DNA of 64,000 nucleotides, taken from positions 7,654 through 71,653 of the forward strand of contig DATMMD010000175.1 in assembly GCA_035569875.1 (NCBI GenBank), in the 5' to 3' direction. This stretch comes from Bryobacteraceae bacterium (GTDB taxonomy: Bacteria > Acidobacteriota > Terriglobia > Bryobacterales > Bryobacteraceae). The position numbers were made by a program, and so were the translations under genes. Numbering within the stretch: position 1 is the first letter of the stretch; every line of letters starts with the position of its first letter. The notes under the pieces were generated by a model. It had not been told where the DNA came from and ran no database searches. It worked only from the letters and a program-made list of their open reading frames with translations. Of the stretch, positions 7,804 to 25,380 are shown in pieces.

Positions 7804-9388
7804 TTCTGCGCTGCGCAATCTACGCTCGATACTCTTCAGACCTCCAAAGTCCAATGTCGATCGCGGACCAGGTGCGCATGTGCCGCGAATATGCGGCTCT
7901 ACAGGGTTGGTCGGTGTTGGAAGAATACATTTACAGCGACGCGGAGCTTTCCGGCGCCGGCGCTGATCGTCCAGGCCTCCAGCGACTTCTCAAATGCACC
8001 CATGAACAGCCCCGCAAGTTCGATGTGATTCTGATCGACGATACAAGCCGATTGTCACGCCGGCAGGCTGATCAGAGCAATATCGTCGATCATCTCCGCT
8101 TCGCAGGAATCCGGCTGATCTCAGTAAGCCAAGGAATCGACAGTGGAAGCGACCAGGGCGACGTCCTGCTTACCGTGCATGGGTTAGTCGACAGCCTATA
8201 CATCAAGGAACTCGCGAAGAAAACTCACCGCGGTTTGGAGGGGCGAGCACTGAGTGGCATGCATACTGGCGGCCGTTGTTTCGGATTCCGAAACGAATCG
8301 AGCCCGGATGGCGTACGTCTGGTCATCGACGATCAGGAGGCCTCCATCGTTCGGCGAATCTTCGAAACTTCTGCCTCCGGAATCTCGCTTAAGGGAATCG
8401 CCAGGATGCTCAACGCTGAACGCGTTCCACCACCACGCGCGAGAAAAGGCCGGGAACATCCTACCTGGTGTCCTACCGCCATACGCGCCATGCTGCGAAA
8501 CGAACTCTACCTGGGAAGGATTCTCTGGAATCGTTCGCAGTTCGTTAAACATCCTGGAACGAATAGACGTGTTAAAAGAGCACGCCCTAAGACCGAATGG
8601 CGAACCGCAGAGCGACCCGAGCTGCAGATCATAAGCGACGATCTTTGGCAGCGAGTACAGGAACGCCTGCGAATCGTGAAGGAGTTATTCGGCCGCGCCG
8701 GCGCCGGAATCAACAAAGCCAGCTCGAGCAATTATCTGCTCAGCGGGTTTCTCAAATGCGGTCTATGCAACGCAAACATGATCATCGTAGCGGGCAAGGG
8801 CAGAAAGACGCTCCGGAAATACTACGGTTGCCCGCAGCACTTTAACCGGGGAGCCTGCATCAATGCCCAGACTATCCGCCAAGACGTGATTGAGCGAAAC
8901 TTCTTCTCCCGACTTCAGCGTGAGGTCCTCACCGATGAAGTGCTTGACTACACGACCGGCGAGTTTGTTCGCCGGCTACAGGAGGTTGGGCCGGATGATG
9001 GGGACAGGATCGTCCGTGACCGCAAAAAGGAAATCGAGCGCGAGTTGCAACGTCTGACGGCCGCGATCGCTGAGGCCGGGCATTCCCGGTATCTGATAGA
9101 AGCCGTCAGCGAGCGTGAGCGCGAATTGGAACGGATCGAAGAGAATCTCCTGATCGCCCGCCGGCAGGACCTGGCGGTCTCACTCCATCACAAGGATATT
9201 CGCGGGTGGATTGCGAGCCGCCTATCAGATCTCTGCGAACTCTTGAAGGTGGACACCGTTCGGGCCCGGGCCGAATTGGCGAAACACACCCTCGGTATCC
9301 GTCTCATTCCGGAAATTGATTCGGCCGGCAAGCCTTCCTACTTTGCAGAAGGTGTCTGGGACCTTCTGGGGACAGGTTTACTTTGCGA

Positions 9389-9410
<22 letters not shown>
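7800..9410 (+). CDS. Large serine recombinase (integrase)
   Basis: Resolvase-type N-terminus (AIYARYSSDLQ with the catalytic Ser region). It continues with a recombinase domain, a Cys-rich zinc-ribbon segment (CGLCNANM...YYGCPQH) and a coiled-coil C-terminus. Total 536 aa. Confidence 0.9.
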
Positions 9411-9465
<55 letters not shown>

Positions 9466-9521
9466 TCGCTATGGTAGCGCAACTGCTTCTGCTCGTCAAA
9501 CTCTTTTCCAAGTGCCAGAAA

Positions 9522-9541
9522 AACTCCCTTTAACTCCCTTT
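9522..9541 (+). repeat. Perfect tandem 10-mer AACTCCCTTT x2 at the 3' end of the integrase pseudogene
   Basis: Read directly. It lies between the tRNA 5' end and the integrase stop codon and is a possible recombinase arm-type site. Confidence 0.5.
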
Positions 9542-10657
9542 AGCCCGCCCTGCATTGATCTACGGCGGATTCCTGCATCGCTACGATCATCTGTACCACG
9601 TTGCTGTTGGCCTCCCTTTTTCGCTCGCTGACAACTGTCCCGTAGAGGTTCGTCGTAGTAGTGATGGAGGCGTGACGCATAAGCTCCTTCTGAACCGCAA
9701 CCGATGCCCCCACATCATCCAGCCAACTTCGGTAGGAATGCCTAAAGGTGTGCCAACCAACTTTGCCTTGTATAGCCGCCGCCGCAGCCGCCCTGCGGAT
9801 ATAACGCTTCTGAATCTCCTCCTGGTGGTACGGCCTCCCCGTAACGGGATTTGCAAACAACCAGGCTTCCGCAGTCGGATAGCACCGCTCTCGGTAGAGC
9901 AGCAGCGCCTCCGCTAGAACGGGGTCGATCGGCACACACTCCTGACTGGCTTCGGTCTTCGCGGGGCCAATTCGACCGTGGACGATTCCTCGCTGTATGA
10001 GCAGCGTACCGAGCTCGAAGTCGAAGTCCGACCACTGTAGTCCCACGATCTCACTACATCGCAAGCCGAGGCATCCCGCGATCAGAAACATGGTCCTGTA
10101 GGGATCGGGAGAATACGAAACAAGCGCGCTGAATTCCCCAGGCTCCAAAATTCGCGGTCGCTTCAATCGCTTAGTCCCTCCTTTCACACGAACGTGGGAT
10201 ATCGGATTTCGGTCGAGCAGATCCCACCTCACTGCGCTTTCAAAGAGCACATGCATCAGACCTCGGATGTGCGCCTTCGTTTTGGGGGCCAGGGGGAGGC
10301 CGCTGAGCCACTGCTCTACCGCGACCGCTTTTACACTGGCGAGCGGTGTGTCAGCCCAACGCGGCTTGATGTGGACGTCGAGGTTAGACCGTACGCCGCC
10401 CTGGTTGAATAGCGCTCCGGCATTTCCTCCTCTTCATAGCGGCCGATCAGCGCACCAAACTTTAGATCAGCCGCAGAAACGGCACGGTCCTCGTTTATCT
10501 TCATCAACAGAGCCTGGACTTTTGCCGTTTTCCTCACGGCCGACTTGGTCGGGTATTCAGTGAGCGTCCCGACCGTGACGGCCCTACGCCTTCGTGGATG
10601 CCCCGGTTCGTAATACCGAAGCTCCCAACTTGAATCTCCTTTCTTCCGCGTCTTCAA
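9540..10657 (-). pseudogene. Tyrosine recombinase (phage integrase family), frameshifted
   Basis: The N-terminal ORF 10331-10657 (MKTRKKGDSSWELRYYEPG...) and the catalytic ORF 9540-10256 (...HTFRHSYRSWL...LMRHASITTTTNLYG) are in different frames. The reading ...YGL(N)LDVHIKPRWADTPLASVKAVAVEQW... is restored by a 1-nt shift near 10377-10393. Confidence 0.8.
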
Positions 10658-10910
10658 TAGAAGACTCCGAATTGGTATCGTACTCTCCTAAACATATTGG
10701 TGTCTTTTCATTAGAGGACACGAGTGGCGGCGTTGAGGATACCGCACTCCGCAACCACAAGCCTAGTTCCGTGGCCCTGAATCGCCACAGATCGTCAATT
10801 CTTGTTGCCGGTAGGTTTCCTTCCCGAGCAAGCTTTTGTAAGGTTTTGGGATGTATACCCAGCAAATGTGCGGCCTGTTCGGTCTTGAGTAGCGGTTCAA
10901 AATTTTCCAT
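10584..10910 (-). CDS. Excisionase/AlpA-like helix-turn-helix protein
   Basis: LLKTEQAAHLLGIHPKTLQKLAREGNLPATRIDDLWRFRATELGLWL matches the excisionase-type HTH. An SD-like GGTGA precedes the ATG at 10910. The 3' end overlaps the integrase start. Confidence 0.6.
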   Translation of the reverse strand: MENFEPLLKTEQAAHLLGIHPKTLQKLAREGNLPATRIDDLWRFRATELGLWLRSAVSSTPPLVSSNEKTPICLGEYDTNSESSIEDAEERRFKLGASVLRTGASTKA

Positions 10911-11337
10911 GGTCACCTATTTTGAAAAGCGATATTGCGTTCATTCGTGGTCCAACGACGACGATTGGCTGACTGCAATAGAAAAGCGTTGCCGGAGGAG
11001 TTTATTGAACGAGCCAATCCGGGAAAATGCGAGTGGGGGGCGCCGGGAGCTCTACCGCTCATTGAATTCGATCGGTGCGCCTTTGAACAGCACCGGCGAC
11101 GAGCAACTCCCGGCAGCGCCAAGATCTGATGTCGGCCGACGACGGTCCAGAAGCGTCTCGAATCCATGATTCTGTCCGGCGGGCTGGCTGACACGGAATA
11201 GGGATTATCGAAGAAACGATTCAATGAATAGGAGAAACCAGCCTTTAATCAGCATAGGTCGTGTCGAACTGCCGGTCCAATGTTTTGTTGATACGATTGA
11301 CCCGCCACCTACATCATCGGCGTTATTCCTCGCCAGC

Positions 11338-12018
11338 CTTGATGTTCCATCGCGCGGCGGCTTCATGACGGCGCCTGTGTGGATTCGGGGAATCCTGAGC
11401 GATGAGTATGGAGTCCCGATCACCAGCGCCATCTATCTGAGTGGCGGGGAGGAGGAGCCGGGCCGCGACGAGAAAATCGCGCTCTCGTTAGCGCCTGAGA
11501 TCCGTGTCGAAGCTATTCCGCGCACTAAAACTCTATCGCGAATGATTGAGTCGGGAGAAATTGACGCCCTATACACGGCTCGAGCCCCCTCGACGTTCCA
11601 CAGCGGAGATGGCAGCGTGCGAAGGTTGTTTCCCGACTATCTAACCGTGGAACAAAATTACTACAAGAAGACCGGTATCTTTCCCATCATGCACGTGATT
11701 GCTATTCGGCGAGCCGTCTATGAAAAGAATCCATGAGTCGCGCAGTCATTATACAAGGCATTCCTGATTGCTCAGAAAGAGGCTTATCAGGATTTACACG
11801 AAACGGCCGCGTTGAAGACTATGCTTCCGCGGGCGGTACATCACGTAGAAGAAGTGGAGCGGCTGATGGGAAGCGATTATTGGCCCTATGGGCTGGATTC
11901 AAATGTGCACGTTTTGAATACCTTTCTGCGGTATTCCTATGAGCAAGGACTCTCGAAGCGCCAATTGACTGCGAAAGATCTCTTCGCGAAAGAAACCCTG
12001 GAATCGTTCAAGATTTGA
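11338..12018 (+). pseudogene. 5'-truncated paralog of the 26526-27470 gene (4,5-dihydroxyphthalate-decarboxylase-like / periplasmic-binding-fold family) with an in-frame TGA at 11734-11736
   Basis: Track ORFs 11224-11736 and 11812-12018 are in the same frame. The read-through gives ...AVYEKNP*VAQSLYKAFLIAQKEAYQDLHETAALKTMLP.... Similarity to the intact paralog starts only around TAPVWIRGIL, which matches TTGLWARGVL about 115 aa into the paralog. Confidence 0.7.
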
Positions 12019-12118
12019 GCGTCGTTATGACGAGAACCAGGCCCCGTTACTCGTTTCGGATTTTTTTCCCTTAGTTGACAGTCTCTCAACGTCCTACCTA
12101 TTCTTGGTGATAGTGACA

Positions 12119-13303
12119 ATGCCACGGCTGAGCAATCCCGGCACGCTGCTGCTGAGCGGGATCCTTGCCGCTATGATGCTGCTCGTGCTGTATGCGCAAG
12201 AACACGGGCCCCAGCCGGCTGGTGGCGACATCATTCCCATCCGCCAGGTTTACGATCCGTTCCCGGTTTTCAACGGACTGGCGATCGATCCGGAGAACAA
12301 TCTGGTTGCGATGACGGACGTAAACCGTAAGAGCATTCTGAGCTACTCCCGCATCGCCGAATCCCGCCGCGGAGGAGTTACGGATCCTCAACGCCAAATC
12401 TTCGGGCCGCTCACGAACGTCGGCTTCGTCGCAGGCATCGTATTGGATCCTCAGCACAAGGAAATTCTCGCTGTCAATAACGACATCGAGGATACGCTCA
12501 TCGTACTTCCCTACGACGCACACGGCAACGAGTCGCCCAAGCGAATGCTCTCAGTTCCGCACCAAGCTTGGGGGCTGGCAGTGAGCCGTACGCACGATGA
12601 ACTGGCGATCACGATAGAGCTTCAGGAAGCGGTGGTCATTTATAAAAGAGAGGCGCATAACGTGGAAGCGCCGATGCGCGTGATTCGCGGTCCAAACGCG
12701 GGCCTCGCGGATCCACACGGCATTCTGTGGGATGACCAGCACAACGAAATCACGGTGGCGAATCATGGAAACTACCGGGGCTTGGTGAAAGACACCGGCG
12801 GCGGCTGCGTACCCAACGGCAACGCAGAACCCGAAGCCGGCGCCGTGCTGCCTCCTTCCATCACGACATATTCGGGCGACACCAAGGGAGACGCTAAGCC
12901 CCTTCGTACCATCCAGGGCGATAAAACCAAGTTGGATTTTCCGATGGGCCTCGGCGACGACCCTGCCAACAACGAGTTCGCTGTCGCCAACAACGGCGAC
13001 AACTCCGTGCTGATCTTTTCCCGGACTGCCGCGGGGAATGTAGCGCCTGCACGCGTGATCGCTGGCCCCGAAACAGGTATTAACCGCCCCATGGGCGTGG
13101 CGATCGATACCGTGAACAACGAGCTTTGGGTCTCGAACTTCATTGACCATTCCGCCCTGGTGTTCGACCGGAAAGCGAACGGCAATGCGGCTCCGAAGCG
13201 AATTATACGGACTGCTCCCGCAGGCACGCCGAGCCCCGGATTCGGGAATCCACAGGCAGTCGCGTACGATTCCAAGCGCGGGCAAATCCTGGTCCCCAAT
13301 TGA
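12119..13303 (+). CDS. YVTN/NHL-like beta-propeller repeat protein, N-terminal ORF with a signal anchor. It may continue through the TGA at 13301.
   Basis: Hydrophobic N-terminus (LLLSGILAAMMLLVLYA). Repeated blades of about 45 aa show ...G(N/D)..P.R.I.G......P.G...D....E..V.N. ATG at 12119 is preferred over TTG at 12104. Confidence 0.8.
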   Translation: MPRLSNPGTLLLSGILAAMMLLVLYAQEHGPQPAGGDIIPIRQVYDPFPVFNGLAIDPENNLVAMTDVNRKSILSYSRIAESRRGGVTDPQRQIFGPLTNVGFVAGIVLDPQHKEILAVNNDIEDTLIVLPYDAHGNESPKRMLSVPHQAWGLAVSRTHDELAITIELQEAVVIYKREAHNVEAPMRVIRGPNAGLADPHGILWDDQHNEITVANHGNYRGLVKDTGGGCVPNGNAEPEAGAVLPPSITTYSGDTKGDAKPLRTIQGDKTKLDFPMGLGDDPANNEFAVANNGDNSVLIFSRTAAGNVAPARVIAGPETGINRPMGVAIDTVNNELWVSNFIDHSALVFDRKANGNAAPKRIIRTAPAGTPSPGFGNPQAVAYDSKRGQILVPN

Positions 13304-14179
13304 GTGGCCCAGCCGCGTATTGCGGCCTTCGCCCGGGGGGCGAACGGGACTATGGCTCCAGAAAGAATCATTACCGGCGGCGCGACGAAGATGTCCCGGA
13401 CGGTGCACGGTATCGCTTACGATCCGGTTCAGGACGAGGTCTACGTAACCAACGCGCTGGCCGATGCGGTGCTGGTGTTCCGCGGTGGCGCGGAAGGCCC
13501 TGCGCCCCCCGTCAGGACGATTCAGGGACCTTGTACCGGTATGGAGAATCCGCACGCGATCAGCCTGGATCTGGCGCATCGCGAAATCCTGGTCGCGAGC
13601 TTGAGCGCGAGGTCCATCGCGATATTTCCGATGGAAGGAAACGGCAACGTGACGCCGAAGCGCTACATCAAGGGGCCTAAGACCGGCTTGGGCCACACCG
13701 TCGGTTTGGGGGTCGATCCGGGAACGAATGTCCTGGTCGTCGCGAACGCCGAAGACATCCTGTTCTTTGATCGCCTCGCGTCGGGCGACGTCGCGCCGAT
13801 CGGCCAGATCAAAGGCGAGCACACCGGAATTCGGGATGAACCTTGGGAGCTACAGATCTACAAAGGAAAGATCTTCCTGGCGGCGTCCAACCATTTGCAC
13901 CTCAACCTCTACTCCCAAGTCACGCTCAAGCCCGAATATAGCCACGGCGACGCCAAAATTCCCGACGACCCGTGGCTCAATCCCCAGTTGGGATTCATCG
14001 GCGTCTGGAATGTGCGCGATCGCGGTGACGTGCCGCCTCGCGTGAAGATCGGTGGTCCATTCAGCGAATTGGTGCATCCCACAGGTTTGGCGCTCAATCC
14101 CGTGGACGGTGAGATCTACGTGACCGATAGCATCCGCAACAGCTTGTTCTCGTTCCTGGTCCCCGCGCTCTTGAAGTAG
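13304..14179 (+). CDS. YVTN/NHL-like beta-propeller repeat protein, C-terminal ORF in frame with 12119-13303
   Basis: Same blade motif as the upstream ORF. The only start is the GTG directly after the TGA. There is no SD and no signal peptide. Confidence 0.75.
   Translation: MAQPRIAAFARGANGTMAPERIITGGATKMSRTVHGIAYDPVQDEVYVTNALADAVLVFRGGAEGPAPPVRTIQGPCTGMENPHAISLDLAHREILVASLSARSIAIFPMEGNGNVTPKRYIKGPKTGLGHTVGLGVDPGTNVLVVANAEDILFFDRLASGDVAPIGQIKGEHTGIRDEPWELQIYKGKIFLAASNHLHLNLYSQVTLKPEYSHGDAKIPDDPWLNPQLGFIGVWNVRDRGDVPPRVKIGGPFSELVHPTGLALNPVDGEIYVTDSIRNSLFSFLVPALLK
13312..13344 (+). promoter_or_regulatory. Two stem-loops immediately 3' of the in-frame TGA (candidate SECIS-like or recoding element)
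   Basis: GCCGC-guauu-GCGGC at 13312-13326 and UUCGCC-cgggg-GGCGAA at 13328-13344. Equivalent hairpins sit at the same offsets in the paralog. Confidence 0.35.
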
Positions 14180-14193
14180 ACCTTGCTGAGGCG

Positions 14194-14225
14194 CTATTTG
14201 ATACCGATCCTATTTGATACCGATC
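14194..14225 (+). repeat. Perfect 16-bp tandem duplication CTATTTGATACCGATC x2
   Basis: Read directly. The second copy (14210-14225) encodes the last residues (IGIK) and the stop of the minus-strand permease. Confidence 0.9.
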
Positions 14226-15652
14226 AGGGGCCAGTAGAGCGGCACAACCAAGAGCAGCAACAGCGAATCCACGAGGCTCATGATCAGGCCGAGCCGGAGA
14301 ACGTCCTTCGCGCGGAAATAATTGTATGCGTACCCGATTACCAGCACCCCGGACTGATACACGAAGATCTTTCCGCCTGAGGAGAATACCCACAGCATGC
14401 CCAGCTTCAGCGGGCTCAAGCCATGGGTGATCGCGACCTGCATCAGCAACGGCATCGAGGTGCCGAGCATGGAAATTTCGCTGGCCAGGAACAGGTGGTA
14501 GAGGAAGCCCGTCCAATACAGCGCAAACGTGGAAAGCAGCTGGTGAGGCAGCAAAGGCTCCAGCCACCCGAAGACAATGTTGGTGAGGACCGCCAAGCCG
14601 CGCGACGCGCTGAGAACCTTGCCCATGCTGACCGCAGCGGCGACAAAGAACAGCTGCAGGAAGTTCAGCTTCCGCATGTCTTGGATGGTCAGGATGCCAG
14701 CGAACGGCAGTACTCCTAACAAGCCGATACCGAGCCCGATCATCGAAGAAGGAATGTGGTGCAGGAAGTCGGTGGCCCAGAGCGCGATCGCCAACAACAT
14801 CAGGGCCATCGATTTCTTTTCCAGCGACGACCACGGACCCGCTTTGCGCAATTCATCCTGCAAGTGTTGTACACCACCAGGTAACGTAGCCACTTCCGGA
14901 GGATAGAGCCACAGCGTCAGCCTCCACGCCACCAGGATCGTGATGATGTCCGAAGGCAGGTACGCCACCAGCCACTGGCTCCATAGCACTTCGACGTGAC
15001 CCACGTTCTCGATGATGCCGCGTCCGGTGATCGCCGCCGCGCCGGCGATGATCGATTTATCGAACACTCCTGCCGTGTAGGTCAAGATGAGGAACATACC
15101 CCGACCGACATTGCTCCCGGGCCCCAACCCAAACGCCTGGATCAGTCCGGTAGCCACTGCGGCCATAACGGTCACGCGCGCCATTCCTGAAGGCACAAGA
15201 AAAGTTAACAAGAAATCCGAGAGGATTAAGGCGAGCAACAGGCGCGAGTAACTGGTACCAATGCGGATTGTGATCAGGTACGCCAGCCGCTTCGCCAGTC
15301 CCGACTTGCTGGCCATGGTGCCGAATAGAATCGCGCCCATCAGAAACCAGGGCGTATCGTCGGCGAATCCACTGAACGCAACGTCGAACTTGACCACACC
15401 GAGCGCCCAGAAGAGATAGCAGCCGATCAGGCCGGTGAGTCCGTGATCCATTACCTCCGTGGCCCACGCCAGGATCATAAACAGCGAGATGGCGATGGCG
15501 TGCTGCGCTTTCGGTTCCAGATGCAAAGGTAGAAACCAAAGCGCGATGGGTGCCGCTATCGACAGCACGGCCTTCCAAACGCTCGGCGAGGCGCTCCTGT
15601 CGAGGGCCGCAGCAGAGGAAGGCGGAGAGATCGTGCCTACGCTATCAGCCAT
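14210..15652 (-). CDS. Anion permease of the ArsB/NhaD superfamily (SLC13/DASS-like)
   Basis: Polytopic membrane protein, about 480 aa from the internal ATG (MADSVG...). The motif style is ...FMILAWATEVMDHGLTGLIG...TPWFLMGAILFG.... The longer track ORF would overlap the aldolase gene. Confidence 0.7.
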   Translation of the reverse strand: MADSVGTISPPSSAAALDRSASPSVWKAVLSIAAPIALWFLPLHLEPKAQHAIAISLFMILAWATEVMDHGLTGLIGCYLFWALGVVKFDVAFSGFADDTPWFLMGAILFGTMASKSGLAKRLAYLITIRIGTSYSRLLLALILSDFLLTFLVPSGMARVTVMAAVATGLIQAFGLGPGSNVGRGMFLILTYTAGVFDKSIIAGAAAITGRGIIENVGHVEVLWSQWLVAYLPSDIITILVAWRLTLWLYPPEVATLPGGVQHLQDELRKAGPWSSLEKKSMALMLLAIALWATDFLHHIPSSMIGLGIGLLGVLPFAGILTIQDMRKLNFLQLFFVAAAVSMGKVLSASRGLAVLTNIVFGWLEPLLPHQLLSTFALYWTGFLYHLFLASEISMLGTSMPLLMQVAITHGLSPLKLGMLWVFSSGGKIFVYQSGVLVIGYAYNYFRAKDVLRLGLIMSLVDSLLLLLVVPLYWPLIGIK

Positions 15653-16391
15653 TGCCGGTCCCCAAGAAGTAATCCTGCAGCATGCGCCAGCGCTCCTCGT
15701 GGATGCTACTGGACTCGACTCCCTTTCGCGCCGCCAGGATGCCCGTTTTGGTTCTGGCTGAAATAACTGGCAGCTTCGCGAGCGAGGCCGCGCGAAGCAT
15801 TGTTTCCGCAACTTTCTCGATCCTGTGAGCGATGACGCACACGTCTGCGATTCCCGGGCCGGCCACGATGCAGCCGTGGTTCTTCAGCAGTACTGCGCCG
15901 AAAACACCAAGCGAGGCCGCCACATCATCGCCCAACTGAGGTGTCGAGATGCTGACCGCGCCGTTGTCAAGCACCGGCAGCTGATCGGTTAACGCGGCGC
16001 AGTCCTGATCGAGCGGCTCGACCGCGATCCCGAGCGCGGCCATCAGAGTCGATGCCGCGGGGTGCGCGTGGAGTACGCAATGGACATCCGGACGAGCGGA
16101 GTAGATGCGCGCGTGAATGGGCCACTCGCGCACGCCGCTCGATTCACCGGGCCGGTCGACACGCACGCCGTTCAAATCGATTACGATCAGGTCTTCCGGC
16201 TCAAGCTTCCACCAGCTTACCGGCCGGGGTTTGATGAGAATGCAAGAATCCCGCAGATTCTCGCTCGGGAGTCTGGCGCTTAGATGCCCACCTAATCCGT
16301 CGCCGACCGCCTTGGCCGCGAACAAAACCTTGCACGCCTTAACCAATTCCTCGCGGAGTTCGGATTCGCCGCGCGCAGGCCCCCGAGTCAA
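15645..16391 (-). CDS. Class II aldolase/adducin-family protein
   Basis: KACKVLFAAKAV.. in the N-terminal region and a metal-binding VHCVLHAHP motif. Tightly packed in an operon. Confidence 0.8.
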   Translation of the reverse strand: MTRGPARGESELREELVKACKVLFAAKAVGDGLGGHLSARLPSENLRDSCILIKPRPVSWWKLEPEDLIVIDLNGVRVDRPGESSGVREWPIHARIYSARPDVHCVLHAHPAASTLMAALGIAVEPLDQDCAALTDQLPVLDNGAVSISTPQLGDDVAASLGVFGAVLLKNHGCIVAGPGIADVCVIAHRIEKVAETMLRAASLAKLPVISARTKTGILAARKGVESSSIHEERWRMLQDYFLGTGNG

Positions 16392-16393
16392 GG

Positions 16394-17680
16394 TCAGACA
16401 TCCGCCTTCATGAGCTCGCGAGCGCCTTCATCGAATTCGATTTCTCGGTTCAACACCAGAGAGCACGAACGAACCCAGTAGGCATCGCCACGATGCGCCG
16501 CTTCGGGCTCACGCCCCTGCTGCAACGCGCGGATCTCCTGCAGCAGCAGGCGGCGCGCGGCGATGATCGCGGTGTCGCTAGTTCCCAGGCGCTCCCGTGT
16601 GCGGTCGACAGTCGCACCCATGCTCTCCTGCAAGGCCTGGTCCTGAGCGGCAAATCCGTGAATTCCGGTCATGCTGATATTGCGTTGGACCTCGCGGTTG
16701 ATTCCGTAGTTGTTGTCCTTATTGCGAAGCGGCCGGAAGGTGATGGGATCGACCTTGGAGTGAACGAAAGTTTCGTTGGCGATCGCGTCGCGATCTTCCT
16801 CGGAGAGCGGGCCCTCGGGATTCCAGCTTATTGTCCAGACCCAGCAAGTTTCGTCGTCCCGTGGAACCCAGCAGTGGCCATGAATAGAGTTGCCCTTTTG
16901 ATACGGAATCATCGTGTGGCTGGGTAGCAGGAACTGGGTCATGCGCCAGTAGTAGGTGTCCTCTTCGGCATTGCGCCGCACGGCGATGATCAAGCCATAT
17001 TCGGTTTTCTTCACCGTGAATCGCGGGGCCTTGTCCAGCAGATGATATTTGGCCCGCAGATTCGAACTGTCCCGCACCTTCGCCACGTAGGAATCCGTCA
17101 CGCGGAACGCATCCACGGAGGCGTGAAGGAAATTGGAATGGCTGGAATCAATGCCGCCCTCAATGGCTTGCAGGTAATTGGTTTCCTGAAATCGCTTGGA
17201 GATGTGGCGGTTCGAGTCCGGCACGCGAGCCCACTCCAGCTTGGGTAGCTCGGGGGCCTGATCCGGCGGACCGAGGTAAGCCCAAATCAGCCCGCCATAC
17301 TCGCGCGTGGGGTAGGCCGTGATCCGGATTTTGTTCTCGAAACCGTACTCCGGGGGCTCATTCGGCATGTCCACGCAGGCGCCGTCGACAGCATACTTCC
17401 AGCCATGGTAAACGCAGCGCAGACCGCACTCTTCATTTCGTCCCCAGAACAGGCTGGCGCGGCGGTGGGGGCAGAACTCATCGATCAGCCCGACACGCCC
17501 GTGCGTATCGCGGAAGGCAATCAGATCTTCGCCCATCAAGCGAACCCGGACAGGGGCACAATCCGGCGTGGGCACCTCGGAGGCGAGCAGGGCCGGCACC
17601 CAATAACGGCGGAAGTATTCTCCGGCAGGCGTGCCAGGATCCGTCCGGGTCAGAAGGTCATTCTCTTCTCTCGACAGCAT
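16394..17680 (-). CDS. Rieske [2Fe-2S] aromatic-ring-hydroxylating oxygenase, alpha subunit (phthalate-family-like)
   Basis: Rieske motif CPHRRASL...LRCVYHGW, with a large catalytic domain following. Confidence 0.85.
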   Translation of the reverse strand: MLSREENDLLTRTDPGTPAGEYFRRYWVPALLASEVPTPDCAPVRVRLMGEDLIAFRDTHGRVGLIDEFCPHRRASLFWGRNEECGLRCVYHGWKYAVDGACVDMPNEPPEYGFENKIRITAYPTREYGGLIWAYLGPPDQAPELPKLEWARVPDSNRHISKRFQETNYLQAIEGGIDSSHSNFLHASVDAFRVTDSYVAKVRDSSNLRAKYHLLDKAPRFTVKKTEYGLIIAVRRNAEEDTYYWRMTQFLLPSHTMIPYQKGNSIHGHCWVPRDDETCWVWTISWNPEGPLSEEDRDAIANETFVHSKVDPITFRPLRNKDNNYGINREVQRNISMTGIHGFAAQDQALQESMGATVDRTRERLGTSDTAIIAARRLLLQEIRALQQGREPEAAHRGDAYWVRSCSLVLNREIEFDEGARELMKADV

Positions 17681-17690
17681 AAGTTCCAGG

Positions 17691-17978
17691 TTACAAAAAG
17701 CTTCGGAGTTTCTCGGCTGCTTCCACAGGACGGCGGTCCGCTACCAGATCATGCGCCATATGGGCTATTCCATGGAGCCGGGCGATCCCTTCGCGCTGCT
17801 TCGAATCAGGCTCATATTTCAAAACGAACCCAGTAATGGACCAGATCGCGTCAAGCTCCGCCTCGCGGTAAACCAGATGTTCAAAATCCACGGAAACTTC
17901 GAGATGCGCGATGATGTTCCGAAGAGTTTCCGGCGAAAAATCCGTCACTGTCACGATGTGTCCTGGGTTCAACTGCAT
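17691..17978 (-). CDS. Hypothetical protein (95 aa)
   Basis: ORF packed between the propeller gene and the Rieske oxygenase gene with 7-10 nt spacers. No motif. Confidence 0.5.
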   Translation of the reverse strand: MQLNPGHIVTVTDFSPETLRNIIAHLEVSVDFEHLVYREAELDAIWSITGFVLKYEPDSKQREGIARLHGIAHMAHDLVADRRPVEAAEKLRSFL

Positions 17979-17985
17979 GGTCCCG

Positions 17986-18810
17986 TTAGAAAACCTCGGG
18001 GAAGTGGAAGGTAAGAACCGCGTTCAGCCGCTTGTCGGACACGATCATATTCTTGTTCTTCACATCTAGCGCGATGCCACGAGGCATTCGCAGGATTCCG
18101 TGCGGTCCGCCAATGGTCCACTTGGGGGGCACGTCTCCATTGTCGTTGATACTCCAGACGCCAACATAGGCTTCGTCCGACGACAGCTCAGCGAAGGGAC
18201 CCGGGCCACGGACGCTCACCATGATCTCACCCTTCGACGGATGTACCGCGAATGGGCCGCCAAAGGCATACAAATGACTCTTCGGTCCACCGATCACTGC
18301 TTTGGGCTTCACGTCACCAGAATCGGTGCGGTTGAAAATGAGCAGGCGGACCTGTCCATGCCCGGCGCTTCCGCCGACTATCAGCAAATTATTCACTGGA
18401 TCCACCGCAACGGGCGCGTCGCCATTGAGCATGGTGTCAGGACCCCGGATCTCGCGGATCGGCGCAACATCGCCACTGCCGTCGCGGGGGAACACGAGTA
18501 CCGCGCCATAGCGGGTCGGCACGAAGATCTCGTTGTGGACGGGATCGACATCCAAATGTTCCGGCGCGTCCAGTTGTGTGTGAGGTCCGATAATTACCCG
18601 TGCGGGGGCTTCCTCGCCGTTAGCCGAGCCACGGTATGTGAGGATCGCCTGGCCAAACTGCTGGGGCACCGTAAATTCATCGTGGATGGGGTCATAGGCA
18701 ATGCCGTGCATCGTGCGTCCCAGCAGGCTGCCTTGTCCCTCCACTTTTCTGACTGGCTTTGCTCCGTCCTTCGCCAACCTGGCGAAGACCGCGATCTGCG
18801 GATGGGCCAC
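17986..18810 (-). CDS. YVTN/NHL-like beta-propeller repeat protein, C-terminal ORF in frame with 18811-20166
   Basis: Paralog of 13304-14179. It starts at the GTG directly after the TGA (plus-strand tca at 18811-18813). No SD and no signal peptide. Confidence 0.75.
   Translation of the reverse strand: MAHPQIAVFARLAKDGAKPVRKVEGQGSLLGRTMHGIAYDPIHDEFTVPQQFGQAILTYRGSANGEEAPARVIIGPHTQLDAPEHLDVDPVHNEIFVPTRYGAVLVFPRDGSGDVAPIREIRGPDTMLNGDAPVAVDPVNNLLIVGGSAGHGQVRLLIFNRTDSGDVKPKAVIGGPKSHLYAFGGPFAVHPSKGEIMVSVRGPGPFAELSSDEAYVGVWSINDNGDVPPKWTIGGPHGILRMPRGIALDVKNKNMIVSDKRLNAVLTFHFPEVF
18769..18801 (-). promoter_or_regulatory. Two stem-loops immediately 3' of the in-frame TGA of the second paralog (candidate SECIS-like or recoding element)
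   Basis: On the minus-strand RNA: CCGC-agauc-GCGG (18801-18789) and CUUCGCC-agguu-GGCGAAG (18787-18769). Confidence 0.35.
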
Positions 18811-20166
18811 TCAATTCGGAACCAGAATCTGCTCGCGCTTGGTGTCATAGGCGATCGGATGCGGATTCCCCAATCCCGGCACAGGCTGATTCGGTGGTGC
18901 ACTGCGGACCACACGCAGCGGCGCCACGTCGCCATTAGCATCCGGATTGTAGACGGCTGAGGTGTGATTACCGAAGTTCGCCACCCACAATTCGTTGTTC
19001 TTCTTGTCGAGGAAGATGCCGGTCGGATTACTGACCATGCTCGCTGTTCCTTTGATCACCCGCAACGGAGCAGCATCGCCGGACGCGTTGGCGTCGAACA
19101 CCAGAACCGAGTTCCCGCCGTCGTTCCCGATGAAAAGTTCATTGCGTTCTTCGTCCAGCGACACGCCGGTTGGCCAGTTCATCTGCGTTTGCGGGCCCTG
19201 GATCGTCCGCAAAGGCCGCACGTCGCCTTTCGCGTCCTTCGCATAGACGGTGATGGACGGTGGCCCGATCTTTCCCGAGCCCGGTACGGCATCGTCACGA
19301 TTCAACGGGAACCCTGGTGAACCTTCGCGCTTGCGGTTCCCGGATTGATTCTGGCGCACGCTGTGCGAAGAGCCGTGATTGGTTACAAACAGGAGCCCAC
19401 GCTTGGTGTCGAGCACCATTCCGTGAGGATCGGCGAGTCCCGTATGGTCGCCCTGCACTACTCGCAAAGGAGCTTCCGTTCCCTTGGCCGACTTGTTGTA
19501 AACCACAATCGCGTTGTCGTGTTGAACAGTTAGAAACAACTCCTGTTTTTCTTCGTCCACCGTGATACCGAAGGTGCCGTGCGGGGTGTGGAGCTCGCGG
19601 TCAGGCTTTACGTCTCCGATGGCCTTTCGCGAAAAGATCACCAGTGTGTCGATGGTGTCGTTGTTGACCGCATAAATGTCACCGTTCGCAGGATCGATAT
19701 ACAGCCCGCATTGAAATTCGATTTTCGTATTCAAGCCGCCGATGAGGCGTTTCGGTTCACTGGATTTGTTTGGCGAGGTCTTGACGCCGCGATCATAAAC
19801 CCAGATGTTGAACAAATTCTCGTCGGTCATCACGACTTCATCGTGATTAGAGTCCACCGCTACAGCGCTGTAGGCTGCGTAGGGATCTCGGATCGTGCGC
19901 TCGGGCTTACGCTGGCTCGCGTCCTCGGGAGTCCACGCTCCGCCGGCAGTTCGCGCCTGCATGAGGAGGTTGCGCAACGGCAATTCGCCGGCCATTAAGA
20001 ACAGCCCAGCGGACGCTTCCGGGCGAGCGCAGGCTTCGTCCTCATCCGATGGCAGCGCATCGTACGAAACGAGCCGCGAAGTGGGCCGCGAGTCTCCCGT
20101 AAAGCCCAGCCAGATCATCAGCGACAATCCGATAGGGAGTGAAACGCGGAGAGACTTGCTAATCAC
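18811..20166 (-). CDS. YVTN/NHL-like beta-propeller repeat protein, N-terminal ORF with a signal anchor. It may continue through the TGA.
   Basis: Paralog of 12119-13303. The N-terminal hydrophobic segment is LPIGLSLMIWLGF. It has the same blade motif and ends ...AYDTKREQILVPN. Confidence 0.8.
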   Translation of the reverse strand: MISKSLRVSLPIGLSLMIWLGFTGDSRPTSRLVSYDALPSDEDEACARPEASAGLFLMAGELPLRNLLMQARTAGGAWTPEDASQRKPERTIRDPYAAYSAVAVDSNHDEVVMTDENLFNIWVYDRGVKTSPNKSSEPKRLIGGLNTKIEFQCGLYIDPANGDIYAVNNDTIDTLVIFSRKAIGDVKPDRELHTPHGTFGITVDEEKQELFLTVQHDNAIVVYNKSAKGTEAPLRVVQGDHTGLADPHGMVLDTKRGLLFVTNHGSSHSVRQNQSGNRKREGSPGFPLNRDDAVPGSGKIGPPSITVYAKDAKGDVRPLRTIQGPQTQMNWPTGVSLDEERNELFIGNDGGNSVLVFDANASGDAAPLRVIKGTASMVSNPTGIFLDKKNNELWVANFGNHTSAVYNPDANGDVAPLRVVRSAPPNQPVPGLGNPHPIAYDTKREQILVPN

Positions 20167-20246: not shown

Positions 20247-20714
20247 ATGACCCGGCTCTTCCTAGCCTTTGTTTCGCCAGCGTTAATATGTGTGTTTCTT
20301 TTCGCCCAGCAAAAGCAGTCTCCCCAAGCAACCATCGCGGCTCTCGACAAAATGACCGCTGCAGGCAAGAGTCAAAAGGAACTTGCCCAGTATGTCTTTG
20401 ACAACCACGGTTGCGGCGGCTGTCATAAAGCGGGAGAAGGGGGCAAACTCGGCTTCACGGAGAAAGGCAAACAGCTTAGCAATGGATTCGAAGGATGCAT
20501 CCGAAGCTTGACGGCGATGAATGTGATTGCTCAAGTGCCCGCGAATCAGCGTTCCGCCGATCAGAAAATCGAGGCCCAGCGTTTCCAAGAGTTCGGCTGT
20601 ACGGTATGCCACCAGATCGTGCCTGGCAAGATGGGTTTGACGGCCTTAGGGGCCAAACTCACGCGTATGCACTTGGGCTGCGTGGATGTGGAAAAGACGC
20701 TGGCTTCCAAGTAG
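20247..20714 (+). CDS. Diheme c-type cytochrome with a signal peptide
   Basis: Two CXXCH motifs (CGGCH and CTVCH) and an N-terminal signal sequence. It is divergent from the propeller operon. Confidence 0.8.
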   Translation: MTRLFLAFVSPALICVFLFAQQKQSPQATIAALDKMTAAGKSQKELAQYVFDNHGCGGCHKAGEGGKLGFTEKGKQLSNGFEGCIRSLTAMNVIAQVPANQRSADQKIEAQRFQEFGCTVCHQIVPGKMGLTALGAKLTRMHLGCVDVEKTLASK

Positions 20715-20747: not shown

Positions 20748-21923
20748 ATGCCCAACTTGATTGACGAGTTCCAGCAAGGACTTGTATCGCGCAGGAGGCT
20801 GCTGGAGCTGCTCACCGGAGCTGCAGGGACTGTAACGCTTGCATCGCCTCGCTTGCACGGGCAATCGAAGCCCGCGAAAGCGCCGGCCGGAGTCGTTGAA
20901 CCGCCCAAATTCAGTCCCGCGAATATCGGCGGCGGTGGCCGCATCGAGCGCGATTTCTATCGCGAGTGGCTCAAGAAAAGCCAGGTGCCGATGATCGAGG
21001 GTTACTCGCTGCTGGATGCGGCAAAGCAGGAGGTGCAGCCTTGGCCGGAGATCGGGGGAAAGGGCTTGTACCTGAATTTTTCCGGGAACGTCCACATGGA
21101 CGGTGTTATCGAGGAAATTCCAGCGGGCAAGGCGCTCGAGCCAAAGCGGCATTTTTACGAACAGATCGTGTACGTGCTGGCCGGGCGCGGGTATACCACG
21201 GTAGGCGGCGGCAACAAGCCCAACAAGGTTTCCTGGGGAGAAGGCAGCCTGTTCACCGTTCCAGTAAACGCGCTGCATCGCCATTTCAATAGCGATCCGG
21301 CGCATCCAGCGCGGCTGCTGTTCATCACCACCTTCCCATTTATGATTCAGGTATTCGGCAGCATGGGACTGATCAATGACTCTAACTTCAGTTTCACCGA
21401 TCGTTATGATGGATCGCCGGATTATTTTACTTCCACCGCTCGCATACGCAAGCGATGGGACAAAACCAACTTCGTAAAAGACGTTCGCTCCGCAGAAGTC
21501 GTGCTGTGGGAGGAACGCGGCGACGGCAACGCCAGCATGTTCTTCGATATGGGCGGCAACACCGTCCTCGAGCCGCACGTCTCCGAATTTGAAGTGGGCA
21601 CCTACAAACTGGGCCATCGCCATCCCTACGAGGCGATCATCCTGACGCTGAACGGCAGGGGCTATTCGCTGGCAGAGAAAGATAAGCTCAAAGATTCAGA
21701 GGCGGTCAAGATCGATTGGCAAGCCGGGTCCGTCGTATCCCCACCGTTCTTCTGGTTCCACCAGCACTTCAATACGGGGAAAACCAAGGCGCGATACCTG
21801 GCGATTACCGAAGGCGATTTTCCGTTGCGCCTCGGCATTCCGTTGTCAGTCGAACAGATTGAGGCGGACAAAGAGGACCCGAACATTAAGAAACGCTTCG
21901 ACCGGGAAGCGCATCCGGCCTGA
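20748..21923 (+). CDS. Bicupin-fold protein with a twin-arginine signal
   Basis: Tat-like SRRRLLELL N-terminus. Two cupin-like halves with His-rich metal motif regions (…ALHRHFN… and …WFHQHFN…). Confidence 0.65.
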   Translation: MPNLIDEFQQGLVSRRRLLELLTGAAGTVTLASPRLHGQSKPAKAPAGVVEPPKFSPANIGGGGRIERDFYREWLKKSQVPMIEGYSLLDAAKQEVQPWPEIGGKGLYLNFSGNVHMDGVIEEIPAGKALEPKRHFYEQIVYVLAGRGYTTVGGGNKPNKVSWGEGSLFTVPVNALHRHFNSDPAHPARLLFITTFPFMIQVFGSMGLINDSNFSFTDRYDGSPDYFTSTARIRKRWDKTNFVKDVRSAEVVLWEERGDGNASMFFDMGGNTVLEPHVSEFEVGTYKLGHRHPYEAIILTLNGRGYSLAEKDKLKDSEAVKIDWQAGSVVSPPFFWFHQHFNTGKTKARYLAITEGDFPLRLGIPLSVEQIEADKEDPNIKKRFDREAHPA

Positions 21924-21935
21924 GCGGGAAGACGC

Positions 21936-24900
21936 TTACCAGAGCAGCTTCAATCCGAATTGAATCTCGCGTTGCGTCGTTGCCGTGTATGTGATCGTCC
22001 CCGCGGTTGGCGACAAAGCACCGGAGGAAAACATGGCGACCACCGGCATCCCAAAATTCGTGTGATTCAACACGTTGAAGAATTCAGCTCGAAGCTCAAC
22101 CTTGATTCTCTCCGTGATGGTCGTGGTCTTGATCAATGACGTGTCAAACTCCACTAGCCCTGGCCCGCTCAGAATGTCCCGGCCGGCGTTGCCGTAAGTT
22201 CCTGCAGGCGGCAAAACAAATGCGGCGGGATTAAACCACTGCGTGCGGTTTCCGGTAACGATCGGACCAGTGAAGTTGGGATTAAAGGAAACGCGATCCG
22301 GGTTTCTAGCATCGCCGTTATTCGACTGGTTGGAACCCACCAGAGGAGTAAAAGGAAAACCGCTTTGCCCTGTGATGATGCCATTCCAGCTCAACCCGCC
22401 AATCAACTTCTCAGTTATCCGGCCGCCATTATTTCCAAAAGGCCGGCCGTGACCAAAGGGCAAAGCATAGCTGAAATTGCCACTCACCTGCTGCGCCGGA
22501 TTAAAGTTCGAGGGACCCCAATCCGCGCGCGGATTTTGAGGAATCATCACCGTCGTAGTCCCAGCGATCCCCTCATTGGCAAGGAAAGAAGAGGAGTGAA
22601 TGTCCAGGCTTTTCGACCAAGTGTAATTGCCCCGGAACTGCAAGCCTTTGCTGAAACGCTGAATGAGGCTGACTTGCAGCGCGTTGTAACTGCTACTGGC
22701 ATTGGCTAGTGTGTATCGAGTATTCGCCAGCGCGTTGTTCGCCCTTACCACGGTACTGGGAAACGGATGACCGATCGTCCCGTTTGCCGTCGCGGTCGGA
22801 GTTACAGTGTTGACGTCTACCGTGTCAGGCAGGTAGTATCCATGTTCCCCTACATAGCCGACGCTGAAAAGCATGTTGGCTGTAATTCCCTGTTCGAGTT
22901 TTAGGGTCCATTCCTCGACCGTCGGCGTTTGCAGGTCGGGCTGCACGCCCGCCGGGGATACCTTTGCACCCGGAAGATTTGCCGTTATCTGAATCGGGAA
23001 AGTAGCAGGGGATGTCTTTGTCCCGATGGAGGGATTAATGTTCAGATTGTTTCCGATCGGGCTGCCATCACAGCACGACCCCATGTAATCAAGCTGGTTA
23101 TAGTAAGTTCCAAACGCTGCATGGATCGCCGTTTTCGAAAGGGGCGCCCATGCCAGCCCGACGCGCGGACCAAAAAGCCACTTCGCGTTATTCACGGTGT
23201 AGGGAGAAGTTCCAAGCATGGGCTGAGTCTGCAAACATTGGGCCGTGCCAGGGGAGCAACCCGCAGTCCCAAAAATGTAATTGGAGGCTTCGCCATTTGG
23301 TGAGTTCCAGCCGTTGTTAAACTCATGCCGCAGTCCCAGGCTAAGAGTGAGATTGGAGCGCAGCTGAATGGCATCCTGCACATACCACGCGCCTGCCAAC
23401 TGGCGCCAACCAATCTCGGCTGGATTCAGTACTGCCACAATCTGGCTGGCTTGGCCTTGCAAAAATGCCGCCACCCCGGAAAAGGTGGCCACACCGTACC
23501 GTTGATTGGCAGCGTCATCGTTGGCCTGAATCCGTTGGAGCCATACTCCCGCGGTGATGGTGTGCTTGCCCTTCGTGATCTGGACATCATCGGTGAAGGT
23601 AAATAGATTCCTGGCGACTTTCTCAAATTGCTGGGACCCGTTGCTGCCCGCGATGGACCATGCGCCCACGCTGTTAAAGCTCGCCGAGCCGACCGAAATG
23701 TCTCCCGCCGGTTGCCCGGGAACAAACGATGTGTCCGCGGGTGTCACCGGCGGCGAGGCCACCAGATCCCAGTGAGCGCGCGAAAAACCGAAGCGGGCGT
23801 TATTTAGAATCGAAGGAGAAAATAGGTGCGTTTCCTGTACACTCGCAATCTGCGCGCGTAGAATGCTCGATGTTTGCGTCAGCGGATTGGCTCCGGGCAA
23901 GAGATTCCGGCCGTCGTCGATCGTGTAAATTCCGGAGAGCATATCTCTGGGGGAAAAATTATGATCGAGCCGAACGTTCCCGAAATCTTCCCGAACGCTC
24001 TGGACGGGATTACTAAACGCCTCCGCGACTCCGCCGCCCAGGTCGGGCCCATTGGGAGTCGGCCACAGAGCGAAATACGGCGCGATCCCCGGCGCCACCG
24101 GAATCGGTTTGCCATTCGACCCCAGTAACGTTCCGCTCCGCGCACTGGCGTCCGGCACAAATGTCACATCGGACAAGCTAAGGCTCTGCCGGAAGCCTTC
24201 ATAATTACCGAAAAGAAAGGTCTTGTCTTTCTTAAGCGGTCCTCCCAAGGCCGCGCCAAATTGATTGCGTTTGAACGGTGGATTTGTGGATTGGGCAAAG
24301 AAGTTACGCGCGTCCAAAACATCGTTCCTCAAGAATTCGAACAGATCTCCGTGGAACTGATTCGTGCCGGACATAGTCACAACGCTGATTTGTCCCCCCG
24401 GCCGTTTTCCGTATTCAGCACCATACGCATCCTCCAGTACGTTAAACTCGCGTACCGCATCGACCCCTAACAATAGACCACTGACGCCGCCAGGCATGAC
24501 GTCGGCAGTAGAGACGCCGGTGTACTCAATGCCATTCATCAAGAAGAGATTGAAGTCTTCGCGATTTCCGGAAACGGAAAAGTTGAAGCCTTGTCCCTTT
24601 CCCGTGCTCGTGGTCGATTGATTCGAGGTCATATTCGTTGTGCTGGGATTCAGAGTGATGAGCGTGTCCCAACTGCGGCCATTCAGAGGAAGGTCCTTTA
24701 CCTGTTGTTCGTTGACTACCCCGGCGACGGATGCCGTCGTTGTATTCACCAGCGGGACCTCCTCGGTGACAGTCACTACTTGTCGAACGGCGCCGACGTC
24801 CATACGCATGTTCACGACCGCCTGTTGCCCGACCACGAGCGTTATCCCCGTTCTAACAACCGAAGTGAACCCTGGCTTCTCTGCTCTGACTTCGTACTGC

Positions 24901-25157: not shown

Positions 25158-25380
25158 AAGCCCTTCCCTCCAGGAACGTCCATTTCGCGAATATCTGTTG
25201 TGCCCAAGGCCCTAGTGCAAGCATACGGCGTAAAGCGGAGACTGGGCAAACCCGTTTCAGCGGGTCGAATTCTATACGTTCACAATAGACGGCTTGATCT
25301 TACTATCACAGCGCATCAGGTCGCAATAACAACCCTGTGCTACTCTGGCCACGGAAGCGCATCGCGTAGAGGAGGAAGCA

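Follow-up and report, generated by a model that had tools for sequence, protein, structure and literature searches.

A Probable Selenocysteine Codon in a β-Propeller Protein Family of Soil Acidobacteriota

The locus described here raises the question of whether a TGA triplet that interrupts an otherwise continuous β-propeller gene is a stop codon or a codon for selenocysteine (Sec). The gene, denoted propA, is located in a stretch of 64,000 nucleotides from a Bryobacteraceae bacterium (GenBank assembly GCA_035569875.1, contig DATMMD010000175.1, positions 7,654 to 71,653 of the forward strand), and this whole stretch is referred to as the window. The original prediction, made from the DNA alone, singled out the TGA as a candidate Sec or recoding site. 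In this report, we present evidence that it is very probably a genuine Sec codon in a single 686-residue propeller selenoprotein encoded at 12119-14179.

The two open reading frames of propA, 12119-13303 (beginning with ATG) and 13304-14179, share the same frame on the forward strand, and the TGA at 13301-13303 is the sole interruption. The frame extends over 687 codons from the ATG at 12119 to the TAG at 14177-14179, and the fused translation is 686 residues in length with one internal stop at residue 395, the position of the candidate Sec. The position of the TGA, the shared frame, and the approximate length of the product were thus all as originally described. The N-terminal part of the gene (12119-13300, forward strand, 394 codons) encodes a signal peptide or anchor at approximately residues 9-29, followed by roughly the first 6.5 NHL-type blades, and its translation ends with ...AYDSKRGQILVPN. 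The C-terminal part (13304-14179, forward strand) consists of 291 codons and the TAG stop and encodes the remaining blades. The N-terminus, MPRLSNPGTLLLSGILAAMMLLVLYAQE, resembles a signal peptide or membrane anchor, and the downstream half is without one. The genes for an aldolase, a Rieske oxygenase, and a cupin in the same window all terminate at TGA. Therefore, the standard genetic code applies and TGA is not globally reassigned in the window, a point on which the original prediction was correct.

The conservation of the TGA was determined using the fused 686-residue translation of propA, with X at the TGA position, as the query. The 74 related loci, with amino acid identities of 47-85%, were taken from GTDB species genomes and are nearly all from Acidobacteriota (Bryobacterales, Solibacteraceae, Blastocatellia, Vicinamibacterales, Terriglobales, Acidoferrum, and Thermoanaerobaculia). 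TGA was found at the identical column in 73 of the 74 orthologous loci, and the remaining locus has TGC. When both strands of the related DNA were scanned for the surrounding motif, 121 TGA, 4 TGC, and 1 TGT codons were obtained, with no examples of TAA or TAG. The genuine ends of the same propeller genes vary among TAG, TAA, and TGA. The TGA and Cys sites are divided among three paralogous subfamilies, in which the residues that follow the Sec position are V[AST]QPR, VAHPQ, or VSVPR.

The homologs that are found as single full-length polypeptides carry a cysteine at this position. The close full-length homologs are 699-778 residues in length and 46-59% identical to the fused propA product, and Cys occupies the TGA column in 10 of 10 of them (motif ILVPN-C-VSQPRIA) and in all nine of the distant full-length representatives that were read. 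The overall motif is ILVPN-C/U-V..P, and the codon at the TGA column is TGC or TGT in loci L057 and L077-L082. The expectation that homologs would be unsplit proteins with a Cys at the TGA column was thereby borne out. More than 100 clusters (at 90% identity) of proteins of approximately 395 residues match the first 54-57% of the query with 68-99% identity, and these proteins are gene calls that stop exactly at the propA TGA site. When 1.84 billion cluster representatives were searched exhaustively with a profile, 2345 proteins were returned with E ≤ 1e-30. Approximately 24 of the top 150 representatives (clusters at 50% identity) end immediately before the Sec column, such as P0125 and P0129, which end in ...ILVPN, and some C-terminal fragments begin just past it, such as P0186, which begins with VSVPRIAAFAR. 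The Sec forms outnumber the Cys forms, with approximately 24 truncated proteins versus 11 full-length proteins among these 150 clusters.

Sec and Cys forms were found to coexist in L057, which has one paralog with TGA and one with TGC (L057:4202 and L057:8057). In L077, both paralogs are Cys forms (L077:1367 and L077:7487), and one of them keeps an intact hairpin of the type described below, which suggests a recent change from Sec to Cys. Seven contigs with TGA-type genes (L024, L027, L031, L038, L043, L051, and L055) are binned as Baltobacteraceae, Planctomycetaceae, Rugosimonospora, Verrucomicrobiia, and Methylomirabilota. These contigs all come from soil catalogues of metagenome-assembled genomes, and their propeller genes are very similar to those from Acidobacteriota. 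The bin labels could reflect either mis-binning or horizontal transfer.

The RNA immediately downstream of the UGA looks like an element of two abutting hairpins. Hairpin 1 (GCCGC-GUAUU-GCGGC) is located at 13312-13326 and hairpin 2 (UUCGCC-CGGGG-GGCGAA) at 13328-13344 within 13327-13345, with the stem of hairpin 2 formed by 13328-13333 and 13339-13344 and the apical loop by 13334-13338, all on the forward strand. Both had been correctly located in the original prediction, at 13312-13326 and 13328-13344. The pairing was evaluated in alignment A2, in which 90 unique TGA sites were aligned without gaps and columns 40-45 and 51-56 correspond to 13328-13333 and 13339-13344 of the window. All six pairs of the hairpin 2 stem are formed in 90 of the 90 sequences and in 109 of the 110 unique TGA sites overall. 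At pair 42/54, 60 sequences have U-A, 27 have C-G, and 3 have U-G, and the paired bases fall on the third, synonymous positions of a Phe codon (TTY) and an Ala codon (GCR). Two third positions are likewise joined by pair 45/51, for which C-G is found in 89 sequences and U-A in 1. The covariation score of alignment A2 was reached by 0 of 500 shuffles, sliding the register reduced the pairing to 28-55%, and RNAalifold retained the helix of hairpin 2 alone.

Hairpin 2 conforms to the published model for a bacterial selenocysteine insertion sequence (SECIS). This model calls for a loop of 3-9 nt, a stem of 4-16 bp, a distance of 16-37 nt from the UGA, and a minimum free energy of ≤ -7.5 kcal/mol (PMC13188914). 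The model loop has G in its first two positions and is typically N1-G-[G/U]-N-N2 (PMC13188914). Hairpin 2 has a stem of 6-8 bp, a loop that starts 30 nt after the UGA, and a free energy of -10.5 kcal/mol when folded alone, and it agrees with the model in loop, stem, leading G, spacing, and energy. The loop pattern is A/C-G-G/U-N-U/G/C/A; AGGNU is found in 96 of the 110 sites, and CGGGG is the loop in the window.

Since part of the hairpin sequence is constrained by the need to encode F-A-R-x-A-N, the Cys-codon homologs were used as a control. The full stem with a G[G/U] loop is present at 109 of the 110 unique TGA sites versus 1 of the 7 Cys sites (Fisher p = 1.6e-8, uncorrected for relatedness). 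In the Cys homolog from L081, the FARLAN peptide is unchanged but is encoded by TTC GCG CGC CTG GCC AAC, which breaks the stem. Random synonymous encodings of the window peptide produced the full stem in just 14% of cases. The proposal that the downstream RNA acts as a SECIS is thus supported for hairpin 2, which fits the published model, has compensatory changes at synonymous sites, and is lost in homologs with a Cys codon.

The two hairpins had been put forward as equal SECIS candidates, and for hairpin 1 this did not hold. As a SECIS core, it was rejected: its loop is just 14 nt after the UGA, the leading G is often absent (CAU), 84.6% of the cells are paired in alignment A2 versus 100% for hairpin 2, and its helix was dropped by RNAalifold. 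Hairpin 1 is probably an accessory stem beside the putative SECIS core, linked to the Sec forms of the gene. At least 4 bp are formed in 105 of the 110 Sec sites, and the mean free energy is -8.7 kcal/mol for A-type Sec sites versus -2.8 kcal/mol for A-type Cys sites. The hairpin is rebuilt from other sequences in subfamily B (CCGCA-GAU-UGCGG) and in subfamily C (CCAG-GAUA-CUGG), and in the Cys form of subfamily B the same residues are encoded by a sequence that forms no hairpin 1 stem.

The genes for Sec synthesis and insertion were found beside an orthologous propeller gene in a related genome. Acidobacteria have been recorded as users of Sec (PMC1794560, Table 2; PMC12013277, Table 2). The sequences of SelA, SelB, and SelD from Escherichia coli were used in tblastn searches of 1.39 Mb of DNA from the related loci together with the window, and matches were obtained in L002 only, with none in the window. 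L002 is located on a 1.57-Mb contig from a metagenome-assembled genome of Terriglobia, and its propA ortholog is 78% identical. The L002 selA gene (8765-7404, reverse strand) encodes a protein 54% identical to E. coli SelA, and selD (approximately 8854-9900, forward strand) encodes the Cys form of a protein 50% identical to its E. coli counterpart. The propA ortholog (9998-12061, forward strand, TGA at 11183) begins 97 nt past selD. It is accompanied by an ortholog of a second split propeller gene, propB, which is described below (14665-12092, reverse strand, TGA at 12919), and by a gene for a diheme cytochrome with two CXXCH motifs (14387-14902, forward strand). These are followed by selB (18015-19970, forward strand), for which the Pfam domains GTP_EFTU, Beta-barrel_SelB, and SelB-wing_3 are all above cut-off, and by a tRNA-Sec (20004-20099, forward strand) identified by ARAGORN and by Rfam (RF01852, 72.1 bits). 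The selA, selD, selB, and tRNA-Sec genes thus flank two TGA-containing propeller genes on one contig. The region L002:7356-20099 holds selA, selD, the two propeller genes, the diheme cytochrome, selB, and tRNA-Sec inside 13 kb, and it looks like a selenium-utilization island built around the propeller family.

The events that we infer for the source organism are as follows. A ribosome that arrives at the UGA at 13301-13303 would encounter mRNA that is predicted to fold directly downstream into the two abutting hairpins, of which hairpin 2 would serve as the bacterial SECIS. SelB-GTP with Sec-tRNA(Sec) would bind this element and insert selenocysteine at residue 395, and translation would then proceed to the TAG at 14177-14179.

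Several observations weigh against this interpretation. Neither sel genes nor a tRNA-Sec were found in the 64-kb window, where the only tRNA found was a tRNA-Met. The stability of the segment 13301-13365, when folded as a single sequence, was no better than that of shuffled sequences (z = -0.70). Because the single-sequence energy is not significant, the case for the RNA structure rests on the comparative data. The sequences compared are mutually related, and thus the Fisher and shuffle figures overstate their independence. Rfam gave no match to a SECIS family at either gathering or permissive thresholds, the matches being chance ones with E > 1. The SECIS loop sits near the far end of the permitted range of 16-37 nt, part of the hairpin sequence is dictated by the conserved F-A-R-x-A-N peptide, and one Cys-codon homolog, in L077, keeps an intact hairpin. 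The function proposed below is drawn only from gene neighborhood and residue conservation.

The alternative that survives best is programmed read-through, in which a standard amino acid such as Trp, Cys, or Arg would be inserted at the UGA by a near-cognate tRNA and the hairpins would be stimulators rather than a SECIS. RNA structures downstream of a stop codon can stimulate its read-through, and the lack of sel genes in the 64-kb window of this genome would be accommodated by such a mechanism. We nevertheless regard read-through as improbable, since all of the homologs without TGA have Cys at this position, which is the classical Sec/Cys signature, the hairpin obeys the loop and spacing rules for a bacterial SECIS, and selA, selD, selB, and tRNA-Sec flank the orthologous genes in L002.

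Downstream of the propA TGA, the same frame is open for 235-356 codons in 70 of the 70 loci compared with the window. Over these loci, the amino acid identity to the window is 60.8% upstream of the TGA and 60.9% downstream, and the differences at codon positions 1, 2, and 3 are 0.30, 0.22, and 0.59 upstream and 0.32, 0.23, and 0.56 downstream. Equal conservation and the substitution pattern of a coding sequence show that the downstream half is translated and is subject to purifying selection. The blade repeat continues across the TGA, as originally suggested, and AlphaFold2 gave one continuous all-β model. Two separate genes might nonetheless be present, in which case the TGA at 13301 would be a true stop, the downstream half would be reinitiated at the GTG by translational coupling, and the two halves would assemble as subunits. 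Split β-propellers that assemble from fragments do exist, gene callers annotate two open reading frames, and GTG is the next codon both in the window and at 75 of the 116 unique sites. At the other 41 sites, the codon that follows the TGA is GTC (24) or GTA (17), neither of which is a start codon, and the nearest in-frame start is 2-33 codons inside the conserved sequence. There is no run resembling a Shine-Dalgarno sequence ahead of the propA TGA, as had been pointed out originally, and a Shine-Dalgarno-like 4-mer occurs within 20 nt upstream of the TGA at just 11 of the 116 sites. Independent initiation, with a ribosome-binding site for the downstream half, is therefore not the general mechanism, in agreement with the original prediction. 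In addition, the stop is never TAA or TAG among the 121 TGA sites, every full-length homolog is fused with Cys at the TGA column, the downstream half has no signal peptide while the protein appears to be exported, and the Sec-linked hairpins would be left unexplained. Two genes are thus an even less probable explanation than read-through.

A lone in-frame stop in one window could, by itself, be an error. A pseudogene, faulty sequencing or assembly, and reassignment of TGA across the genome are nevertheless all effectively refuted: the identical TGA recurs in assemblies that were produced independently in many studies and that cover many orders, both halves are under purifying selection, and TGA is an ordinary stop for the cupin, aldolase, and Rieske oxygenase genes.

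A second gene of the same type, propB, is found in the window and was not flagged in the original prediction. This paralogous split propeller gene is located at 17986-20166 on the reverse strand and consists of 451 codons (20166-18814), a TGA, and 274 codons (18810-17986). The TGA (18813-18811, reverse strand) is the second candidate Sec codon of the window, in the context ILVPN-TGA-VAHPQIAVFARLA. It is followed by a SECIS-like hairpin (CUUCGCC-AGGUU-GGCGAAG; 18787-18769, reverse strand) with a free energy of -10.7 kcal/mol, a loop of AGGUU, and a distance from the UGA equal to that in propA. The same arrangement also occurs in L001, L002, L075, and L076, and in a Cys form in L077.

The domain matches place the product of propA among the NHL-repeat proteins. 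The Pfam NHL family (PF01436) was matched twice (30.1 and 29.7 bits; cut-off, 20). The match to SGL (SMP-30/gluconolactonase/LRE, PF08450) was 24.3 bits, under the cut-off of 26.3, and the match to arylesterase/paraoxonase (PF01731), with 31.4 bits against a cut-off of 21.3, spans just 31 residues of the last C-terminal blade. NCBIfam gave no match for the N-terminal half and insignificant matches only for the C-terminal half. The AlphaFold2 model, obtained with alignment A1, has a predicted local distance difference score (pLDDT) of 85 and a predicted template modeling score (pTM) of 0.82, and includes a helix at residues 9-29 and a disordered insert at 221-241. From the recurring G-D/N-x-x-P-x-R motif, approximately 12 blades are counted, which would correspond to two six-bladed propellers. 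A Foldseek search of the PDB returned just generic tandem WD40/YWTD double propellers with template modeling (TM) scores of approximately 0.3 and no functional lead, and a sequence-profile search of the PDB returned weak matches to NHL domains only, the best with E = 2e-8.

The Sec/Cys column is 100% conserved among 108 unique family members, whereas the other Cys columns are conserved in at most 44%. Residues conserved in at least 97% of these members include L391-V-P-N-U-V396, P399, and F404-A-R406, together with His148, His200, His216, His344, and His430. No partner Cys is conserved, and therefore the site does not constitute a CxxU motif of the thiol-disulfide type. Sec395 directly follows the VPN strand (the strand-B motif VxN) of blade 7, in the segment with the highest conservation in the family (L-V-P-N-U-V-x-x-P). 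This position presumably opens the B-C loop, on that face of a propeller which usually holds the active site. Judging from the N-terminal sequence, the product is probably exported.

A potential redox partner is encoded next to propB. The gene at 20247-20714, on the forward strand and divergent from propB, encodes an exported protein of 155 residues with two CXXCH motifs, a diheme cytochrome c. In 31 loci, a homolog of this protein is encoded close to a propeller gene, in many cases at a distance of ≤140 nt, and both Sec-type and Cys-type genes have such a neighbor. Two CXXCH motifs are present in 30 of the 33 members, and Pfam gives just a weak match to PSCyt3. The diheme cytochrome c is thus a candidate electron-transfer partner. 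Periplasmic propeller redox enzymes, such as cytochrome cd1 nitrite reductase, quinohemoprotein alcohol dehydrogenase, and hydrazine synthase, work with c-type cytochromes. By analogy, the propeller module of this family may be paired with the neighboring cytochrome, as the adjacency of their genes suggests. Unlike in those enzymes, no sign of a site for pyrroloquinoline quinone, d1-heme, or another cofactor was seen, and no sequence kinship or specific structural kinship with them was found. We infer that the product of propA is a periplasmic redox enzyme in which a catalytic Sec, possibly together with His148, His200, His216, His344, and His430, would exchange electrons with the adjacent diheme cytochrome c. 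The gene context suggests that this enzyme possibly acts on imported aromatic or plant-derived compounds.

The genes around propB provide this context. Downstream of propB, on the reverse strand, the interval 14210-17978 contains an open reading frame of 95 residues, a Rieske/LigXa_C oxygenase gene (16394-17680), a class II aldolase gene (15645-16391), and a gene for a Na_sulph_symp/CitMHS transporter (14210-15652). The Pfam labels in this interval were transferred from the near-identical contig L075. Upstream of propB are a gene for a cupin with a twin-arginine translocation (Tat)-like leader (RRRLLELL; 20748-21923, forward strand) and a gene for a TonB-dependent-type outer-membrane barrel (CarboxypepD_reg and OMP_b-brl_4; approximately 21939-25211, reverse strand). 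Clustering of the open reading frames over the related loci placed the Rieske gene in 18 loci, the aldolase gene in 15, the cupin gene in 13, and a UbiD gene in 13, where some of the clusters are antisense reading frames or single-linkage merges. A neighborhood cluster of 57 loci, in which a TonB-dependent-type receptor was mixed with a transporter, was not relied on.

It is tempting to combine these features into a new class of selenoenzyme, in which the Sec lies in a His-rich hub of five residues (H148, H200, H216, H344, and H430), has no partner Cys, is served by a dedicated diheme cytochrome, is specified by a two-hairpin SECIS, and is possibly a metal-selenolate or selenenic-acid redox catalyst for imported substrates derived from plants or aromatic compounds. 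This proposal is speculative, and we consider it rather unlikely in its entirety. If true, its chemistry would be unlike that of any known selenoprotein of the thioredoxin-fold, molybdopterin, or NiFeSe type, and selenium would be an important micronutrient for the dominant Acidobacteriota of soil.

The proposed mechanism of recoding is canonical. As in the bacterial selenoprotein genes for which the SECIS model was developed (E. coli fdhF/FdhA; Zhang and Gladyshev, per PMC13188914), the UGA is directly followed by an intragenic stem-loop, and the loop begins with N-G-G/U and lies within the range of 16-37 nt from the UGA. Pairs of Sec and Cys homologs and sel genes in a related genome are further points of similarity. 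The additional Sec-linked hairpin between the UGA and the SECIS core is not a feature of the canonical genes, and in the propA family the Sec forms are more common than the Cys forms, unlike in canonical selenoprotein families. The fold is unrelated to those of the listed selenoproteins, and the Sec is outside of a UxxC/CxxU or molybdopterin context. The repeat signature and the predicted all-β fold are those of NHL-repeat six-bladed propellers (PF01436; TRIM2/3/71, Brat, and proteins labeled "YncE" by JGI). Known NHL domains are mostly binding modules with no catalytic Cys, whereas the propA product has a tandem of approximately 12 blades, a signal peptide, an invariant Sec/Cys, and conserved His residues. 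There is no close solved structure for the propA product.

A 2026 catalogue of 119 prokaryotic selenoprotein families and subfamilies (PMC13188914, Table 1) has no entry for a propeller, NHL, YncE, or lactonase protein, and a full-text search of the literature returned no paper that ties selenoproteins to NHL or β-propeller proteins in bacteria. The probable selenoprotein family, from soil Acidobacteriota, is new, being absent from the 2026 catalogue and from NCBIfam, and its product would be the first β-propeller selenoprotein. The unusual traits of the family are the propeller fold, the likely export, the lack of CxxU, the predominance of the Sec form, the presence of several paralogs per locus, and the two-hairpin element. 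Public annotation cuts the propA-type genes into fragments of 395 and approximately 275 residues that are labeled as hypothetical or YncE-like, a problem that extends to more than 100 clusters at 90% identity. With a family model that makes an exception for Sec, the annotation would be corrected across soil metagenomes. There are two to three propeller paralogs per locus, and in one genome these are embedded in a cluster of sel genes. With the likely export, the absence of CxxU, and the predominance of the Sec form, this paralog number and location suggest that the propeller family could be one of the chief reasons for the retention of the Sec machinery in many Acidobacteriota. The family would tie the availability of selenium in soil to a periplasmic redox pathway.

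Two other features of the window are of minor interest. The TGA at 27468-27470, which separates two long open segments of one frame, was considered as another case of recoding and was rejected, since it is the stop codon of an NMT1-like gene (26526-27470), and the PanB-like gene that follows starts from a separate ATG at 27492. In the region of approximately 8150-10500, the tRNA-Met (9389-9465) is flanked by two genes for phage integrases and by an HTH_17 gene, as mapped from L075. A gene for an NMT1-like binding protein directly ahead of propA seems to be split into frames at 11224-11736 and 11812-12018, and possibly represents what remains at the border of an integrated element.

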